From positions 15,455-79,454 of the IMG/VR virus record IMGVR_UViG_3300032124_000002: a stretch of 64,000 bases of DNA. The stretch is one strand, 5' to 3'. Below, one piece after another: positions 1,561 through 46,579 of this stretch. The position numbers and the translations under genes were made by a program. The stretch comes from a virus. How positions within the stretch are numbered: the stretch's first letter is position 1; every line of letters begins with the position of its first letter. The notes beneath the pieces were generated by a model. It made no database searches. It was not told the origin of the DNA and saw only the letters and a list, made by a program, of their open reading frames with translations.

Positions 1561-1709
1561 CGGCTGACACCCCGCAACCGGAAATCCCTGACAACCTGAC
1601 GTGGGGCCAGAGCCTGGATTTAAACGTCAGTCTGCTTTCAGCGCTGGGCCAGTGCAACCGGGATAAGGCCGACATCAGGCAAGCAGAGAAAAAACGAGCC
1701 TCGCAATAG
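1533..1709 (+). pseudogene. Rz1-like o-spanin C-terminal remnant without start codon or lipobox
   Basis: Frame reads PVVPLPANLTADTPQPEIPDNLTWGQSLDLNVSLLSALGQCNRDKADIRQAEKKRASQ*; in-frame TAA at 1521 upstream; orphan signal-like MMIALIAL at 1508 is in another frame. Confidence 0.75.
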
Positions 1710-1720
1710 CGGGGCTTTTT
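1697..1720 (+). terminator. Intrinsic terminator after the spanins
   Basis: agcctcgc-aata-gcggggct followed by tttt. Confidence 0.75.
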
Positions 1721-1722
1721 AA

Positions 1723-1840
1723 TGCGTATCGTACACGCAGATCATCGAGAGTCTTTCAGTCGTGAGCCTGAGGAACGCCGTTAAAGGTGGCGACCTCTCT
1801 CGGGCGGCGTTCCTGTACGACAGGCTCACACCTAAAGGAA
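1723..1840 (+). ncRNA. Structured cis-leader element, copy 1
   Basis: Nested stems gtgagcctg/caggctcac, aggaacgccg/cggcgttcct, aggt/acct; homologous to 14906-15026 with compensatory changes. Confidence 0.65.
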
Positions 1841-1848
1841 AGAAAGTC

Positions 1849-2571
1849 ATCAAGTATTGGAAAGTTCAGCTTCTGCAGCTTTCTCAGCCTTCCGGCAATA
1901 TTCCCGGCATTATGAACGCCCGCACTCTGGTCGAAAGCCTGTTGTTTGAGGGGTACTCGAAAGATAAACCGAAAATTAACCTCGGTTCCGGAGTAAATAT
2001 TGAGTTGTTTACAGCACCCGATTCGCTGGAAACCCGTATCTTTCGTGACCACCTCGTTGACAGTGTGCGTTGCTTCCCGATGTGTGAAGATGATGATGAA
2101 ACTGACGGAACTCAGGAAGAGCAGACTAAGCCACCCTCACGCGAGGCCATGATTGAATATATCAAGCAGGCCATTGGGGAAGGCTATCATCCTAAAATCT
2201 GCCATGAGCTCATTCGCAATCCTGATCTGCTTTGGCAGTTGCATGACGAGGCGGTCGATTATGAATATCGCGCTTGTTGGCGCTGGTACCAAAACGGTCA
2301 TGGTTTTCATGAGACTTTTAGCGTCCCTGAGAAAATCCACGATCACGCCTGCGTAAACTGTTTTGCCGATAAAGGCCCATGCCTTGGCGAGTGCCACGTA
2401 TCCGACGTTAATAAGGCTCGCAGCTCCTCCTTCGAAGACGTAGTGAAGCCGGTAATCAAATGGCTTAACGAAAACGCCAACCCTCATGCATCAGTGAGCA
2501 TCGACGCGACCAGTGCTCATCTGCTTACTGGTGAAATCGGCATTCACACGGAAGAGTTCATTAAGGACTGA
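1849..2571 (+). CDS. Modular hypothetical moron protein; likely start is ATC at 1849 (non-canonical or mutated), not GTG 1762
   Basis: Open frame 1762-2571; AAAGGA RBS 9 nt before ATC 1849, the same spacing as RBS-to-ATG in the second leader copy; Cys/His cluster HACVNCFADKGPCLGECH. Confidence 0.55.
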   Translation: MKYWKVQLLQLSQPSGNIPGIMNARTLVESLLFEGYSKDKPKINLGSGVNIELFTAPDSLETRIFRDHLVDSVRCFPMCEDDDETDGTQEEQTKPPSREAMIEYIKQAIGEGYHPKICHELIRNPDLLWQLHDEAVDYEYRACWRWYQNGHGFHETFSVPEKIHDHACVNCFADKGPCLGECHVSDVNKARSSSFEDVVKPVIKWLNENANPHASVSIDATSAHLLTGEIGIHTEEFIKD

Positions 2572-2775: not shown

Positions 2776-2896
2776 TTATAAAGTTCTGCAAATGGCGTCT
2801 GAAATACGCCATTGACAGAGTTTTATATAAGTTTGTTGATGCATTGGTGTCGAAATTACCGAGCAAGTATCTTCGGTTGCCAGAGGATTGTTCTGC

Positions 2897-3532
2897 ATGA
2901 CTGAAAATGACAATCGCAGACCATACCCTCCCGTCAACTTCACTGGCGAAAACTGGCTGCCGTATACCCGCCTGATCCCCGCTTCCGAAATCGGCGAATG
3001 GGTAAATCAGAACATCCTCTCCGAAGACGGCCGAATCCATAACCCTGACCATACGCACTTGCTCGATGCTGATGTGGCGTTTATGTGGGCTTCTGGCTCA
3101 TTCGCCAAAAGCGGCCGCATTGTGCTGGGGCAGTGTGAGCAGGTAATGATGCGTGCCGGCGGCTGGCAGAAGTCCCGCATGGAGCAGCAGATGCATGAAT
3201 GGTTCGGTCGTATACCGAAGTTCATCATCACCCTGGCTGCCGACTACTGCGAGCAATGTAACGATCTGGAGTTCTGCGCACTGGTAGAGCATGAGCTTTA
3301 CCACATCGCCCAGGCTACCGATGACTATGGCGCGCCGAAGTTCAACAAAGAGACCGGAATGCCGGTGCTCAAACTTCGCGGCCATGACGTCGAGGAATTC
3401 GTCGGAGTGGTCCGGCGTTACGGCGCCAGCAAAGACGTGCAGGAAATGGTGGATGCGGCGAACAGGCCGGCGGAGGTTGCTCATATCGATGTTGCCAGAG
3501 CGTGCGGGACTTGCATGCTGAAACTGGCTTAA
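2897..3532 (+). CDS. Putative phage metallopeptidase
   Basis: HELYH (HExxH) and GHDVEEF motifs; AGAGGA RBS; lies just before the small terminase. Confidence 0.8.
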   Translation: MTENDNRRPYPPVNFTGENWLPYTRLIPASEIGEWVNQNILSEDGRIHNPDHTHLLDADVAFMWASGSFAKSGRIVLGQCEQVMMRAGGWQKSRMEQQMHEWFGRIPKFIITLAADYCEQCNDLEFCALVEHELYHIAQATDDYGAPKFNKETGMPVLKLRGHDVEEFVGVVRRYGASKDVQEMVDAANRPAEVAHIDVARACGTCMLKLA

Positions 3533-12931: not shown

Positions 12932-14413
12932 ATGGCAATTTCGCTATCAAAAATCGCCCAGATGCTTCCCGGCGTACTGAAGGCGACAGGGACAGCTATT
13001 GATCTCAATGGCCTGTTCCTGACCGACAGCGCATACGCGCCGGTTGGTGCAGTACCCTCATTTTCCAGTGCGGATGAGGTAAAGGCGTACTTCGGCAGCG
13101 CGTCGATTGAGTACACCGCCGCGGTGCTGTATTTCGCCGCTTTCACCGGTAAAACGCAGATGCCTGGCAAGCTGTATTTTAGCCGATTCAATACCTCAGC
13201 AGTGGCGGCATTCCTTCGTTCTGGATCGCACGCCGCGACCACGCTGGCACAGCTCAAGTTGCTTTCGGGTACGCTGACTCTGACCGTTGACGGTACGGAG
13301 GAGACTTCTGCGGCTATCAACCTCAGCGGCGCCACCAGTTTTGATAACGCGGCAGAGCTGATTGAAACCGGTATTGGTTCCTCGGTTGTAGTGACCTGGG
13401 ATAGCGTGCTGAAGAAATTCATCATCACCTCTGCCACCACAGGCGTGGATAGCACCATTACCTTTGCCGATGAAGGTACGCTGGCCACAGGTCTTAAACT
13501 GACCGAAGCGACCGGTGCGGTGATCTCTCAGGGTGCGGCGCCGGCAGTGGTTGACGATATCTTTACTGCCATTCTGGCCAAAGAGCAGGACTGGGTAACA
13601 TTCTCCACGACGTTCGCTGTCACCAAAGACCAGGCTAATGCGTTTGCGCTCTGGACAAACAGCCAGAACCACCGCTTTGCCTATGTCCCATGGGACGCAT
13701 CAGGAACGGCAATCGTGGCGGGCAGCTCGAATGCACTGGTGTATGACATCATCAACACCTACGCCTATAACGACACCTGCCCGGTGTATGGTTATCCGAA
13801 CCACGCAGCAAACGCTATGGGGTTTGTGGCTGCGCTGAACTTCACGCAGGCCAATGGGCGCTGTTCTCTGAATGGTCGTCAGGTGTCCGGCCTGCTGCCG
13901 ATGATCAGTAACGATACTGATTACGAGGCGGCCAAGGCCAACGGTTATAACTTCTACGGCAACTATGCCTCGAATGCCGTCGAAACCAACCAGTGGGCTC
14001 CCGGCTCTATTACCGGTGATTACGCCTGGCTTGACGCATGGGCGGGTCAGGTATGGGTAAATGCTCAGCTTCAGGCGGCTCTCGTTGCGCTGTTCCAGCA
14101 GGCGAGCAATCTGCCCTACGCAGCAGCCGGAAAAGCTCGCATTGAGTCGTGCATGAAGCCGACCATTGAGCAATTCAGGGCGTGGGGTGGCATGACGGCG
14201 GGCACCGATCTTGACCAGTCGCAGATCGACCAGATTAACGCCATCGCTGGCGTCGATGTTACGGATTCGCTTCTGGCTGAAGGGTATTACGTCTACATCG
14301 GCCCGTTCACCGCGGCAATGCGCGCCGCGCGTACCAAGCCAACGGTTTACTTCTGGTACACCGACGGCGGGATCATCCAGGGTATCACCGTTAACAGCGT
14401 GGAGGTGCAGTAA
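12932..14413 (+). CDS. Contractile tail sheath (DUF3383)
   Basis: 493 aa; NGYNFYG and YFWYTDGGIIQGI C-terminal motifs. Confidence 0.9.
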   Translation: MAISLSKIAQMLPGVLKATGTAIDLNGLFLTDSAYAPVGAVPSFSSADEVKAYFGSASIEYTAAVLYFAAFTGKTQMPGKLYFSRFNTSAVAAFLRSGSHAATTLAQLKLLSGTLTLTVDGTEETSAAINLSGATSFDNAAELIETGIGSSVVVTWDSVLKKFIITSATTGVDSTITFADEGTLATGLKLTEATGAVISQGAAPAVVDDIFTAILAKEQDWVTFSTTFAVTKDQANAFALWTNSQNHRFAYVPWDASGTAIVAGSSNALVYDIINTYAYNDTCPVYGYPNHAANAMGFVAALNFTQANGRCSLNGRQVSGLLPMISNDTDYEAAKANGYNFYGNYASNAVETNQWAPGSITGDYAWLDAWAGQVWVNAQLQAALVALFQQASNLPYAAAGKARIESCMKPTIEQFRAWGGMTAGTDLDQSQIDQINAIAGVDVTDSLLAEGYYVYIGPFTAAMRAARTKPTVYFWYTDGGIIQGITVNSVEVQ

Positions 14414-14856
14414 TGGCCGGTCAAAATATTACGTCGGCAGACGCCATCATTGAGCTGGTAATCGCTGAGCTCTACCCGTCAGGGTTTAACCTGGAGCAGT
14501 TCGAAGCGCAGAACATCTTCGAAATGGGTGATACTGACACGGCAGAGTACCAGCGTACTGCTGACGGGAAACTGCTGGGCGGTTTTGTTTATGGTGATCT
14601 TCCGTGGACTTTCCATCTGGCGGCATCATCCCCGTCGATTAAGTACATCGACAACTGGCAAACCACGCAGATGACCACGCGGTCTGTGCTGCGTGTCAAT
14701 GGTACGGTGATCCTGCCGTCGCTGGGTAAAAAGTACATTATGACCAACGGTATCCTGCAGCGCGCGCGCCGTATGCCGTCTGCCGGCCGTGTGCTTCAGC
14801 CGGTAACTGGACTCATCCAGTGGGAAACTGTCACCCCGGCAGACTACTCAGCGTAA
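14413..14856 (+). CDS. Tail tube protein
   Basis: 147 aa right after the sheath; NITSADA..LEQF motif. Confidence 0.85.
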   Translation: MAGQNITSADAIIELVIAELYPSGFNLEQFEAQNIFEMGDTDTAEYQRTADGKLLGGFVYGDLPWTFHLAASSPSIKYIDNWQTTQMTTRSVLRVNGTVILPSLGKKYIMTNGILQRARRMPSAGRVLQPVTGLIQWETVTPADYSA

Positions 14857-14862
14857 ACAATC

Positions 14863-14887
14863 AGCCCGGCCAAGTCCGGGCTTTTTT
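14863..14887 (+). terminator. Intrinsic terminator after the tube gene
   Basis: agcccgg-ccaagt-ccgggct plus T-tract. Confidence 0.75.
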
Positions 14888-14905
14888 ATACCAGAAATAA
14901 ACCCC

Positions 14906-15026
14906 TGCGCGTCGCAGCGCATTTAACTCCCGAGTCTTTCAGAAAGCTGAGCCTGAGAAATGCCGTATAGGTGCGGACCTTCTCGGGGCGGCATTTCTGT
15001 GCGAACAGGCTCATCTTTCTAAAGGA
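14906..15026 (+). ncRNA. Structured cis-leader element, copy 2
   Basis: agaaag/ctttct, tgagcctg/caggctca, agaaatgccg/cggcatttct and aggt/acct stems ending at the AAAGGA RBS of rha. Confidence 0.65.
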
Positions 15027-15035
15027 AATACCGCA

Positions 15036-15593
15036 ATGTCATACCCAACAGTTATTAACGGACTTGATTTCCGTGACCTCATTTTTGTTGCTGACAACGA
15101 CCCGGTAACTGACTCGTTTATGGTGGCGAAGGCATTTGGGAAACGTCCTGACAACGTCATTCGTGATATCGAAAAAACTATTAAGGCATGCCCGGAAGAG
15201 TTCGATACAAAACTCAATTTTGAGGTTTGCTATAAAAACAATGAGTTGCAGAACGGAAAGCCGCAGAAGTTCTATCGACTCCGCAAAGATGGATTGATGC
15301 TTCTGGTTATGTCCTACACCAAAAAAGAGGCGATGCGTATTAAGATCGCCTACATCAACGCCTTCAACTGGATGTACGCGATGCTTCAGGTAGGGCGGCG
15401 CCAGTTTGAAGAAGAGCGTAACGCCGTCATGCTGGAGTTCCTGAAAGAGAAGGATGTCGCCAGTATGTCTGGTCGTCTGTTACGCCGGTGGGGGAAAGAG
15501 AAGAAGCCACAGCTACTTTCACGCATTGAGCAACTGGACAAGCAAGGTCAGTTGGCATTGCCCGGTTTTCCTGGTGCGCTTACCGAATCATGA
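15036..15593 (+). CDS. rha: Rha family regulatory protein (moron)
   Basis: TDSFMVAKAFGKRPDNVIRDI and KDGLMLLVMSYTKKEAMRIKIAYINAF Rha motifs. Confidence 0.88.
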   Translation: MSYPTVINGLDFRDLIFVADNDPVTDSFMVAKAFGKRPDNVIRDIEKTIKACPEEFDTKLNFEVCYKNNELQNGKPQKFYRLRKDGLMLLVMSYTKKEAMRIKIAYINAFNWMYAMLQVGRRQFEEERNAVMLEFLKEKDVASMSGRLLRRWGKEKKPQLLSRIEQLDKQGQLALPGFPGALTES

Positions 15594-15620
15594 AAACCAC
15601 AAATTCGTGGTTTTTGAATG

Positions 15621-15642
15621 GCCCACTACGGTGGGCTTTTTT
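15621..15642 (+). terminator. Intrinsic terminator after rha
   Basis: gcccac-tacg-gtgggc plus tttttt. Confidence 0.75.
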
Positions 15643-15672
15643 ATTGCCAGATAACTCATTCAGGAAACAAAA

Positions 15673-16149
15673 ATGGCTCGTAAAAGCATCGTATTCACGG
15701 TTGAAGCAGATAACCGTGACAAGGGTAAGCAGTTCAAAATCACCGAAATGCCGGCGAGAAAGGCCGAAGAGTGGGCGATCCGCCTGGCGTGTGCCGTGAT
15801 TGGCGCCGGCGTTACCGTTCCCGACAATATGATGATGGCCATCGGTGCTGCGGTGGCGCCGGCCCCAGCCGAGGATAACGCAGAAGCTCGCGAGCTGTAC
15901 GAAAGCGTGATGGCCAGCGGCATGGCAGGTCTCGCTCAGTGGGGTATCACATCACTGGCTAAAGTTCCGTTCGCACAGTCCAAGCCTCTGCTTGATGAGT
16001 TGCTTGGCTGCGTGAAATTCCTCGGAGGTAATGGTATCGAAACAGCGCTTGTTGACGAAGGTCAGATCGAAGAAATTAGCACCTGGTCGCGCCTGAAAAT
16101 CGAAGCCTTCAAACTCCATATCGCTTTTGTAGCAGCCACCGCAAGTTAG
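15673..16149 (+). CDS. Tail assembly chaperone
   Basis: 158 aa upstream of the tape measure gene. Confidence 0.8.
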   Translation: MARKSIVFTVEADNRDKGKQFKITEMPARKAEEWAIRLACAVIGAGVTVPDNMMMAIGAAVAPAPAEDNAEARELYESVMASGMAGLAQWGITSLAKVPFAQSKPLLDELLGCVKFLGGNGIETALVDEGQIEEISTWSRLKIEAFKLHIAFVAATAS

Positions 16150-30579: not shown

Positions 30580-30651
30580 TGTCCCCTGCAGGAATCGAAC
30601 CTGCAACTAGCCCTTAGGAGGGGCTCGTTATATCCATTTAACTAAGGGGAC
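30580..30651 (-). tRNA. argW: tRNA-Arg(CCT); 3' end reads A-CTT instead of A-CCA
   Basis: GTCCCCT TA GTTA..TAAC G AGCCC CT CCT AA GGGCT AGTT GCAGG TTCGATT CCTGC AGGGGAC A; full cloverleaf. Confidence 0.96.
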
Positions 30652-43936: not shown

Positions 43937-44386
43937 CTATTCGTTAGTCACAATTATATAAATACTAACTTGGTCATTGTCGTTATTTTCAACTTCTGTA
44001 AGAATTTTTTCAAACATGCTTTCTTGATATGCTTCTAACGATATGTTGGGACCAATTTTTAATATTTTTTTTGCTAGTTTCTCTGCTGCATTTCTTTTTG
44101 AAAAATTGTCATTGAAACTGTGGGAGTCGTGGCGTGAGGCATCTGCATTCCATGATACTTGCTGGCTTTTTGATGATTTGTGTTTTTTTGCAGCTATATG
44201 TATATGTCTTTGTGTTTTAGTATTTGTGTTTTCTGCATCGACTCGATAATAAAGTTTTGTTTCTGGATCTAGCTTCCAACTTTCTGTTGCAATATTAAGA
44301 ACTTCAACTTCATTATTGAGAATTATTTGAGCTGTTAAAACATAATCTTCAGGTAATTCATCATAAATCTCTTTTAAAATACTCAT
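43937..44386 (-). CDS. AT-rich hypothetical (DUF6367-like) moron between Q and holin
   Basis: 149 aa, AAGGA RBS, RHIHIA and VSWNADASRHD motifs, antisense to the late operon. Confidence 0.8.
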   Translation of the reverse strand: MSILKEIYDELPEDYVLTAQIILNNEVEVLNIATESWKLDPETKLYYRVDAENTNTKTQRHIHIAAKKHKSSKSQQVSWNADASRHDSHSFNDNFSKRNAAEKLAKKILKIGPNISLEAYQESMFEKILTEVENNDNDQVSIYIIVTNE

Positions 44387-46221: not shown

Positions 46222-46357
46222 TACGGCCTGCAATTGGGTGCGGATCATCTACCTGACTGACCACGATATCGATGTGCTGGATAAGCAGACGAAGCGCGAC
46301 ATTCTGGCGCACAATAGATCGGTATCCGCGAATTGCTCCAAAAAAAAATCACTTTGA
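46136..46357 (+). CDS. o-spanin lipoprotein (Rz1-like)
   Basis: MYRKTLSVWAMTMLIASC lipobox overlapping the Rz 3' end; VVDTACNWVRII. Confidence 0.8.
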   Translation: MYRKTLSVWAMTMLIASCAKDLPAPVVVDTACNWVRIIYLTDHDIDVLDKQTKRDILAHNRSVSANCSKKKSL

Positions 46358-46399
46358 GTCCGCAGCAGCAAAAAAGCCGGTATATACCGGCTTTGATAC

Positions 46400-46579
46400 T
46401 TATCTTTTACTATCTGGGGTTCTTTTTACGGGGACCCAAGATCCTCCTGGTTTGGAGGTAGGTGGTGCAGTCCTGTTGTCCGGAATCGTAGTAAAGTTAT
46501 CTGTCTTTCCTCCTCTCGGACCTTGTTCACGATAAACACCACCATCCTTACCACTGTTTTGTCCTGGTTTTAATGGCAT
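46400..46579 (-). CDS. YjzC-like small protein
   Basis: LKPGQNSGKDGGVYREQGPRGG..PPTSKPGGSW matches the YjzC pattern (KPGQ..G.Y.E.G..G..P.T....W). Confidence 0.65.
   Translation of the reverse strand: MPLKPGQNSGKDGGVYREQGPRGGKTDNFTTIPDNRTAPPTSKPGGSWVPVKRTPDSKR

Follow-up and report, generated by a model that had tools for sequence, protein, structure and literature searches.

What is a sequence of about 125 nt doing twice in one virus genome, each time in front of a different gene? We analysed a window of 64,000 nt, positions 15,455 to 79,454 of the IMG/VR record IMGVR_UViG_3300032124_000002, in which positions 1723-1839 (copy A) and 14906-15026 (copy B) are two copies of one such element, 77% identical by column. 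An earlier, sequence-only reading of this DNA had described the same architecture at both sites, and every part that it listed is present (Table 1). The two compensatory swaps that it had counted in the inner stem (P4) are genuine: between copy A and copy B, a G-C pair becomes A-U and a C-G pair becomes U-A. Each copy also lies, as had been proposed, just 3' of an intrinsic terminator and just 5' of unrelated genes (a phrog_16206 ORF and rha, respectively). The predicted folds have energies of -50.6 kcal/mol (z -3.9) for copy A and -51.7 kcal/mol (z -2.9) for copy B.

Table 1. Positions in the window of the two leader copies, their parts and the adjoining terminators and cargo genes (SD, Shine-Dalgarno sequence; PK, pseudoknot)
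Feature	Position	Strand	Basis or remark
Intrinsic terminator after Rz-like spanin gene, AGCCTCGC-AATA-GCGGGGCT + T run	1697-1720	+	sequence; abuts copy A; aligned by Rfam terminator-containing models
Leader copy A, P1 to SD	1723-1839	+	R1 129.2 bits over 1715-1855; fold
Copy A P1 hairpin, TGCGT-ATCGTAC-ACGCA	1723-1739	+	loop TCGTAC 1729-1734 is the PK1 5' strand
Copy A PK2 5' strand, TCGAGAG	1745-1751	+	directly 5' of anti-SD; UCGAGAG/CUCUCGG
Copy A GAGTCTTTCAG	1749-1759	+	sequence reading
Copy A anti-SD TCTTT, P2a 5' strand	1752-1756	+	fold and family covariation
Copy A P3 (outer stem), GTGAGCCTG/CAGGCTCAC	1762-1770/1821-1829	+	sequence, fold, covariation
Copy A P4 (inner stem), AGGAACGCCG/CGGCGTTCCT	1771-1780/1805-1814	+	sequence, fold, covariation
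Copy A P5, AGGT-GGCG-ACCT	1785-1796	+	sequence, fold, covariation
Copy A PK2 3' strand CTCTCGG, 3' bulge between P5 and P4	1797-1803	+	covariation
Copy A PK1 3' strand GTACGA, 3' internal loop between P4 and P3	1815-1820	+	complementary to P1 loop (UCGUAC/GUACGA)
Copy A TAAAGGA	1833-1839	+	SD region AAAGGA, P2a 3' strand, 1834-1839
Cargo gene A, phrog_16206 family (E 2e-55), hypothetical	1849-2571	+	canonical ATG removed; in-frame ATG 1912
Intrinsic terminator after tail-tube gene, upstream of copy B	14863-14887	+	terminator scan
Leader copy B, P1 to SD	14906-15026	+	R1 139.2 bits over 14898-15042; fold
Copy B P1 hairpin, TGCGC-GTCGCA-GCGCA	14906-14921	+	loop TCGCA 14912-14916 is the PK1 5' strand
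Copy B PK2 5' strand, TCCCGAG	14928-14934	+	matched partner CTCGGGG
Copy B GAGTCTTTCAG	14932-14942	+	sequence reading
Copy B anti-SD TCTTT (P2a 5') 14935-14939; P2b 5' AGAAAG 14941-14946	14935-14946	+	fold, covariation
Copy B P3 (outer stem), TGAGCCTG/CAGGCTCA	14948-14955/15006-15013	+	sequence reading
Copy B P4 (inner stem), AGAAATGCCG/CGGCATTTCT	14956-14965/14989-14998	+	sequence reading
Copy B P5, AGGT-GCGG-ACCT	14969-14980	+	sequence reading
Copy B PK2 3' strand, CTCGGGG	14982-14988	+	matched partner TCCCGAG
Copy B PK1 3' strand, TGCGA	15000-15004	+	complementary to P1 loop TCGCA
Copy B P2b 3' CTTTCT 15015-15020; SD AAGGA 15022-15026	15015-15026	+	fold; ATG at 15036
Copy B TAAAGGA	15020-15026	+	sequence reading
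Cargo gene B, Rha-family protein (Phage_pRha + ORF11CD3)	15036-15593	+	domain searches
Intrinsic terminator closing rha cassette	15620-15645	+	precedes tail assembly chaperone gene 15673-16149

Copy A follows genes for an endolysin (564-1013) and an Rz-like spanin (1213-1560) and precedes the phrog_16206 ORF and the genes for a DUF2280 protein and the large terminase; copy B separates a tail-tube gene (14413-14856) from the Rha-family gene. Shortly before the window begins, the provirus carries genes for NinB, NinG and a Q antiterminator (PF06323, E 1.5e-87). With the Q gene there and the leaders co-oriented, both belong to a lambda-type, Q-dependent late operon; a late operon is also where the earlier reading had placed them. 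Promoter scans at both copies returned 0 sigma-70-like sites and P1 of copy A starts 3 nt past the terminator T run, so leader and downstream (cargo) gene would be transcribed by read-through of the terminator. This qualifies the term 'moron', which had been applied to the cargo and which in the strict sense means an inserted gene with its own promoter upstream and its own terminator downstream: a terminator does follow rha, but no promoter was found at either copy, and in that sense the label fails. The morons of lambdoid phages (in the general Hendrix/Juhala concept) are likewise single accessory genes amid late genes, bounded by terminators. The classical moron, however, brings its own promoter, whereas none is detectable at the window's leaders and transcription must come from upstream. 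Two ORFs of the neighbourhood deserve mention. A 69-aa ORF at 15590-15799, which overlaps the end of rha and crosses the terminator at 15620-15645, matches no family and is probably no gene; the ORF at 2888-3532, between cargo gene A and the DUF2280 gene, encodes a PhageMetallopep protein (PF18894), with which its PHROGs label, 'transposase', disagrees.

To examine the fold, covariation was counted in a 62-sequence model alignment, with a structure comprising P1, P2a, P2b, P3, P4, P5 and two pseudoknots. Standard pairs are formed in 92.9% of the cells across the 62 members, as against 33-54% when the partners are slid by 1-3 columns. Changes on both sides were found in 36 of the 49 pairs, and 0 of 500 shuffles reached any of the five measures used. 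The compensatory changes first noticed between two copies thus extend to the whole family, far above the controls. The helices of the fold as originally drawn hold up, but not its form as a simple nested hairpin, to which two covarying pseudoknots have to be added. In PK1 the loop of P1 pairs with the internal loop that separates P4 from P3 on the 3' side (98.6% paired, 6 of 6 pairs covarying). In PK2 the partners are the 6-8 nt that immediately precede the anti-SD and the bulge on the 3' side between P5 and P4 (97.1% paired); one of its pairs is CG in 29 members and GC in another 29. The alignment was fitted to the nested helices with the pseudoknot segments left unmodelled, so the pairing in PK1 and PK2 is no fitting artefact. 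The small hairpin P1, listed earlier as a part of its own, is on this comparison no separate feature, its loop being one strand of PK1.

More than 10 PK1 sequences and about 9 PK2 sequences occur across the family, each with its own matched partner. For PK1 they include UCGUAC/GUACGA (copy A), UCGCA/UGCGA (copy B), UCUCAC/GUGAGA, UUCACC/GGUGAA, UCCACCG/UGGUGGA, UCACCC/GGGUGA, UGCCC/GGGCA, UCACAC/GUGUGA, CUGACAU/AUGUCAG and, in phage P22, CCGCA/UGCGG. For PK2 we found CGAGAG/CUCUCG, CCCGAG/CUCGGG, CCAGAG/CUCUGG, CGCAGAG/CUCUGCG, CACAGAA/UUCUGUG, GAAAG/CUUUC and, in P22, CCACCGA/UCGGUGG. The two commonest PK1 types and the two commonest PK2 types exist in all four combinations, always with matched partners. 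P5 is missing in three members and PK2 is retained in the resulting loop, which argues that PK2 matters more than P5. Wherever a phage has two leaders (L006, L020, L043, L082, L108, L004 and the window), its copies are told apart by the sequence of PK1, of PK2 or of both; such differences between co-resident copies could reflect selection against cross-pairing, or mere divergence.

The 5' strand of PK2 continues into that of P2a, and the 5' strand of P3 into that of P4, with zero linker at both junctions, and PK2 plus P4 (about 17 bp) is similar in length to P2a, P2b and P3 together (about 19-20 bp). From the linker-free junctions and matching lengths, all helices could be present at once, in two stacks lying next to each other and connected at each end. 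In another arrangement, formation of PK2 could preclude that of P2 and vice versa, making a switch. As to the strand, G.U exceeds A.C overall (108 to 48), and G.U occurs at four positions of P2a/P2b in 19-27 sequences each, an excess that fits an RNA of coding sense. The minus strand was rejected as the functional one: it scores 20 bits against 139, the copies are all co-oriented with their cargo, and G.U exceeds A.C. We also rejected the leader as coding sequence, since its members differ by indels of 1-2 nt and the GTG-started ORF at 1762 merely crosses the hairpin. Nor is the hairpin an intrinsic terminator or attenuator, which would be a GC-rich hairpin with a U run directly after it; here (C)UAAAGGA follows, with no U run, and the scans flag the upstream terminators only. 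Judged by these patterns of pairing and substitution, the leader is a conserved, structured and strand-specific RNA element.

Does this element belong to a known family? Rfam 15, searched with the whole window at gathering threshold, gave no match for the leader. The only hit was a tRNA gene (30580-30651, minus strand, 66 bits), far downstream of both leaders, a possible marker of the attachment site or of the end of the prophage. With the cutoff relaxed to E<=10, the two copies and the corresponding leader of P22 gave only chance matches on the upstream terminator, so the lack of a known family, which the earlier reading had put up for checking in Rfam, stands in Rfam 15 even at that level. 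The search of phage and prophage sequences with a covariance model, likewise suggested there, was run with R1, a model built from the leader family of the window, and it did find relatives. R1 scores 129 bits for copy A and 139 bits for copy B (E 1e-30 to 1e-33), and finds no third copy in the provirus. Both copies carry the traits of the R1 family: matched PK1 and PK2, an upstream terminator, an SD within P2a and a place directly before an ORF. The same model finds the region just upstream of rha in P22 (52 bits, E 5e-11).

Searches with blastn returned 54 phage records for copy A and 145 for copy B, the carriers including phi80, HK639, HK620, CUS-3, Sf101, epsilon34 and many Stx2a-converting phages. 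A pattern scan of IMG/VR detected the leader in at least 120 contigs. The phi80-type leader is present in 953 of 5,426 complete E. coli genomes, in up to 4 places per genome and without an annotated RNA feature, and the P22-type variant in 75 further phage records. R1 also uncovered a further, divergent copy in each of six loci (IMG/VR or phage) that had been collected for their first copy. A looser pattern, GAGCCTGAG-N40-62-CAGGCTC, was abandoned for genome contigs: among the at least 120 matches listed, all were chance matches from unrelated phyla and none had a leader. The literature searched contained nothing relevant on an rha leader, riboswitch or pseudoknot. From these searches, the leader family is widespread in lambda-, P22- and phi80-like temperate phages of Enterobacterales, and absent from Rfam. 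Klebsiella phage RothC (PP934563.1) carries a P22-type leader before a 'homing endonuclease' as well as a copy-A-type leader (44193-44338 and 46277-46428).

The leader is always co-oriented with the downstream ORF and ends at its start. In annotated relatives it lies between a terminator and a gene start, that gene being rha in phi80 and HK639 and the unrelated gp68 in epsilon34. The complete cargo ORFs that follow 117 leaders were grouped into 17 clusters, among them Rha (Phage_pRha+ORF11CD3), KilA-N, ANT/KilAC, T5orf172/MUG113 (GIY-YIG-like), HNH_3, phrog_16206, a hydrophobic protein and unknowns; the RefSeq labels of E. coli cargo (Rha, GIY-YIG nuclease, KilA-N) agree. Identical leaders are found with differing cargo. 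The slot between the tail-tube and chaperone genes, occupied by rha in the window, contains other leader variants in Klebsiella phage KP12 and in 'Lambdavirus PDP110P1' (R1 52 and 57 bits), each with its own matched PK1 and PK2 and with different cargo, and their homology to the window stops right after the terminator T run. More generally, the start codon and, at the opposite edge, the terminator T run are where homology between phages breaks off. The slot comparison and the limits of homology together suggest that the mobile unit is the leader plus the gene (plus a 3' terminator), set behind a terminator. The portability claimed from the two copies alone is therefore found family-wide, with one leader before Rha, KilA-N, Ant/KilAC, T5orf172/GIY-YIG-like, HNH and unknown genes and slot variants in Klebsiella phages. 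In two related Klebsiella phages (L253, 896-1047; L254, 3197-3342), variant leaders with cargo beginning MSNII... occupy the window's rha slot.

Cargo gene A departs from its relatives. Compared with three close ones (L044, L077 and L124), a 7-nt deletion (ACAGCAT) has removed the ATG and the SD-ATG spacer (window 1838-1915). Twenty-one codons on, the ATC of the relatives has become an in-frame ATG (at 1912) by a C-to-G change. Either cargo gene A is decaying, or its start has moved beyond the control of the leader. With the ATG lost, the copy A leader would currently control nothing canonical.

How might such a leader act on the gene behind it? The near-invariant GAG(U/C)CUUUCAG is an anti-SD: its (U/C)CUUU pairs with AAAGG(A), which lies 7-11 nt before the AUG. 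In the 62 members the P2a pairs between anti-SD and SD are 97-100% paired, and divergent members have changed both sides of P2a together (CACAU/AUGUG in the second copy of L043, CCUA/UAGG in that of L082). This covariation shows the SD to be buried in the basal helix. P2a consists of just 5 pairs (UCUUU/AAGGA, with G.U), and is weak, on a hairpin of -50 kcal/mol. RNA thermometers of the fourU and ROSE types hold the SD in a marginal helix with a U-rich stretch, which melts at 37-42 C. The calculated cost of freeing the SD-AUG region, pseudoknots ignored, has a median of 6 kcal/mol (range 2.8-15), and is about 3.0 for copy B.

We consider it probable that the leader is a cis-acting throttle or gate, static or tunable, on cargo translation. 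Late RNA polymerase would read through the terminator that always precedes the leader, and the transcribed leader would fold into P1 and a long hairpin (P2a-P2b-P3-P4-P5) clamped by PK1 and PK2. The basal helix P2a, pairing the anti-SD with the cargo SD, would then hold down or gate translation initiation in cis. The cargo held down in this way would comprise antirepressor-like DNA binders and homing-type nucleases, whose overproduction would probably do harm. Since the SD moves with the leader, a gene recombined behind the leader would inherit the same control. We infer this control of cargo translation from the anatomy of the leader alone. Several findings weigh against a throttle: the opening cost of copy B, about 3 kcal/mol, is by itself a mild block, the SD of P22 (GAAGG) lies just outside the clearest basal helix, and copy A stands before a gene that no longer has its canonical ATG. 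Moreover, two conserved pseudoknots far exceed what masking an SD needs, a hint that the RNA may do something more, for instance sense a cue, bind a protein or undergo processing.

Evidence that part of the leader is made as RNA comes from P22. Salmonella infected with this phage contain P22F, an RNA of 89 nt that appears only after infection, is abundant, was checked by RT-PCR and is listed with 'No known function' (2026; PMC13397905). Its 3' end lies 6 nt before the start of rha (PMC13397905). Mapped on P22, its span begins at the P2b 5' strand and stops a little beyond the SD, and so covers the long hairpin but neither P1 nor the PK2 5' strand. From P22F it is evident that the hairpin folds and persists in vivo, and the ends of P22F hint that the leader is cleaved internally. 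The region upstream of rha in P22 (P22F) and phi80 is thus the same element as the leaders of the window, the phi80 rha leader being a typical member; the source describes P22F without a fold, a family or a tie to other cargo (PMC13397905). The window copies, by contrast, belong to the main sequence type and not to that of P22, and one of the two stands before a gene other than rha. The copy B region is present in four RNA libraries from four studies, as assembled contigs only, from which starts, ends, strand and DNA carry-over are not readable; two contigs span tail tube, terminator, leader and rha, and two break in or near the leader (at 14976 and 14919).

Several other functions have to be weighed against translational throttling. 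The elaborate fold could belong to a conditional switch, either riboswitch-like or operated by a protein or by temperature, in which the double-pseudoknot core is the sensor and the AU-rich P2a/P2b the expression platform, the cargo being translated on a host or phage cue. We regard such a switch as unlikely, although it would account for a fold more elaborate than SD masking needs, for the division between a GC-rich, stable core (P3, P4, PK1, PK2) and an AU-rich P2a/P2b with G.U pairs, and for several unpaired positions that are conserved even among the most divergent members. The cargo differs between copies, so any regulator would have to be shared, from the host or the phage backbone, and not the cargo protein. 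Classical genetics, according to the summary in PMC4936722, ties rha toxicity to loss of the host factor IHF, a link that would suit a host cue. Against a switch, the analysis brought up no ligand, no protein and no alternative helix that excludes another; three members lack P5; the helices may all be present together in a static fold; and no Rfam riboswitch model matches. In its boldest form, which we hold quite unlikely, the sensing core would define a riboregulator class of its own, by which lambdoid phages, Shiga-toxin phages included, translate antirepressor-like, nuclease and possibly counter-defence cargo on a cellular cue, with PK1 and PK2 serving as 'address codes' against cross-talk among copies. 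P22F brings to mind a processing or stability module instead, with terminator and leader forming a cleavage point that segments the late transcript and frees a stable P22F-like RNA, either trans-acting or a by-product. That RNA has discrete ends inside the P22 leader and is RT-PCR-validated and abundant in infected cells only (PMC13397905), the hairpin of more than 20 bp resembles an RNase III substrate, and a terminator hairpin is always directly upstream. Small-RNA libraries, however, enrich any nuclease-resistant hairpin, no target is known for a trans-acting RNA, and the covariation of the SD pairing and the two pseudoknots would be left unexplained; we judge this reading very unlikely.

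An element acting as DNA, whether a conserved linker through which homologous recombination exchanges cargo cassettes or a site bound by a protein such as IHF, would agree with homology that ends at the start codon and the terminator T run, as at a recombination joint, and with identical leaders before different cargo. It is nevertheless highly improbable: compensatory changes in seven helices, two pseudoknots included, denote selection on a folded single strand and not on a duplex, the G.U excess is strand-specific, and recombination is better viewed as a consequence of the conservation than as its cause. The put RNAs of HK022 type consist of two stem-loops just downstream of an early promoter and act on RNA polymerase. 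A put-like RNA that alters the polymerase to pass the terminator behind the cassette might be imagined here because the rha cassette sits between two terminators amid essential tail genes, and because the leader is carried by HK639, reportedly a phage with put-type antitermination (King et al. 2011). Its probability seems to us close to negligible, as the Q antiterminator of the phage already explains read-through, the leader lies downstream of the terminator and could not help to pass it, and its late-operon position and its 3' end, tied to the SD and AUG, point to translation.

This RNA of about 125 nt, with seven covarying helices of which two are pseudoknots, occurs in hundreds of sequenced phages, including P22, phi80, HK620 and Stx-converting phages, and in roughly a sixth of complete E. 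coli genomes; what was already known amounts to one unexplained small RNA, P22F, and the leader is in no RNA family database. It may be a general 'plug-in socket' for phage accessory genes, giving any gene recombined behind it the same ribosome-binding site and control. Such a mechanism would explain how antirepressor-like genes such as rha stay harmless in lytic growth (the old IHF-dependent Rha phenotype) and would aid the annotation of start codons and cargo boundaries in prophages. The leader also offers a compact natural double pseudoknot for structural study.

Known systems share single features with the leader. Hairpins that sequester an SD are found at homing-endonuclease and late genes of T4 and at the N leader/RNase III site of lambda. 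As in our leader, they lie on long read-through transcripts and set the translation of non-essential or toxic genes, homing nucleases included. They are, however, simple and gene-specific, and an internal late promoter or RNase III lifts their block, whereas the leader is one conserved, portable, pseudoknotted family with no internal promoter found. Pseudoknotted translational operators occur in E. coli rpsO (bound by S15), the E. coli alpha operon (S4) and T4 gene 32, where a pseudoknotted 5' leader likewise overlaps the ribosome-binding site. Those operators are bound by the protein that they encode; the proteins downstream of our leader are mutually unrelated, so autoregulation cannot be its common logic.

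The C4/IsrK modules (P1 immI and Gifsy-1 isrK-orf45-anrP; PMC4825925) resemble the leader in placing antirepressor-type phage genes under RNA control. Modules and leader alike have two short complementary segments that covary in the manner of 'address codes', and fold so that the ribosome-binding site is kept shut (PMC4825925). C4 and IsrK are, however, separate small RNAs with their own terminator that act through an upstream small ORF, whereas the leader holds both pairing partners in itself, downstream of the terminator. Homology was rejected: the Rfam models C4 (RF01695), c4-a1b1 (RF03163) and isrK (RF01394) match Gifsy-1 at 48-79 bits and miss the leader at E<=10, and R1 has no match in Gifsy-1 at E<=10. 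Without cross-matches in either direction, the likeness would be one of function, not of descent. At the Gifsy-1 isrK locus itself (L252, 34131-34329, minus strand), c4-a1b1, isrK and C4 match side by side, as an already known C4 module of the P1 immI type.
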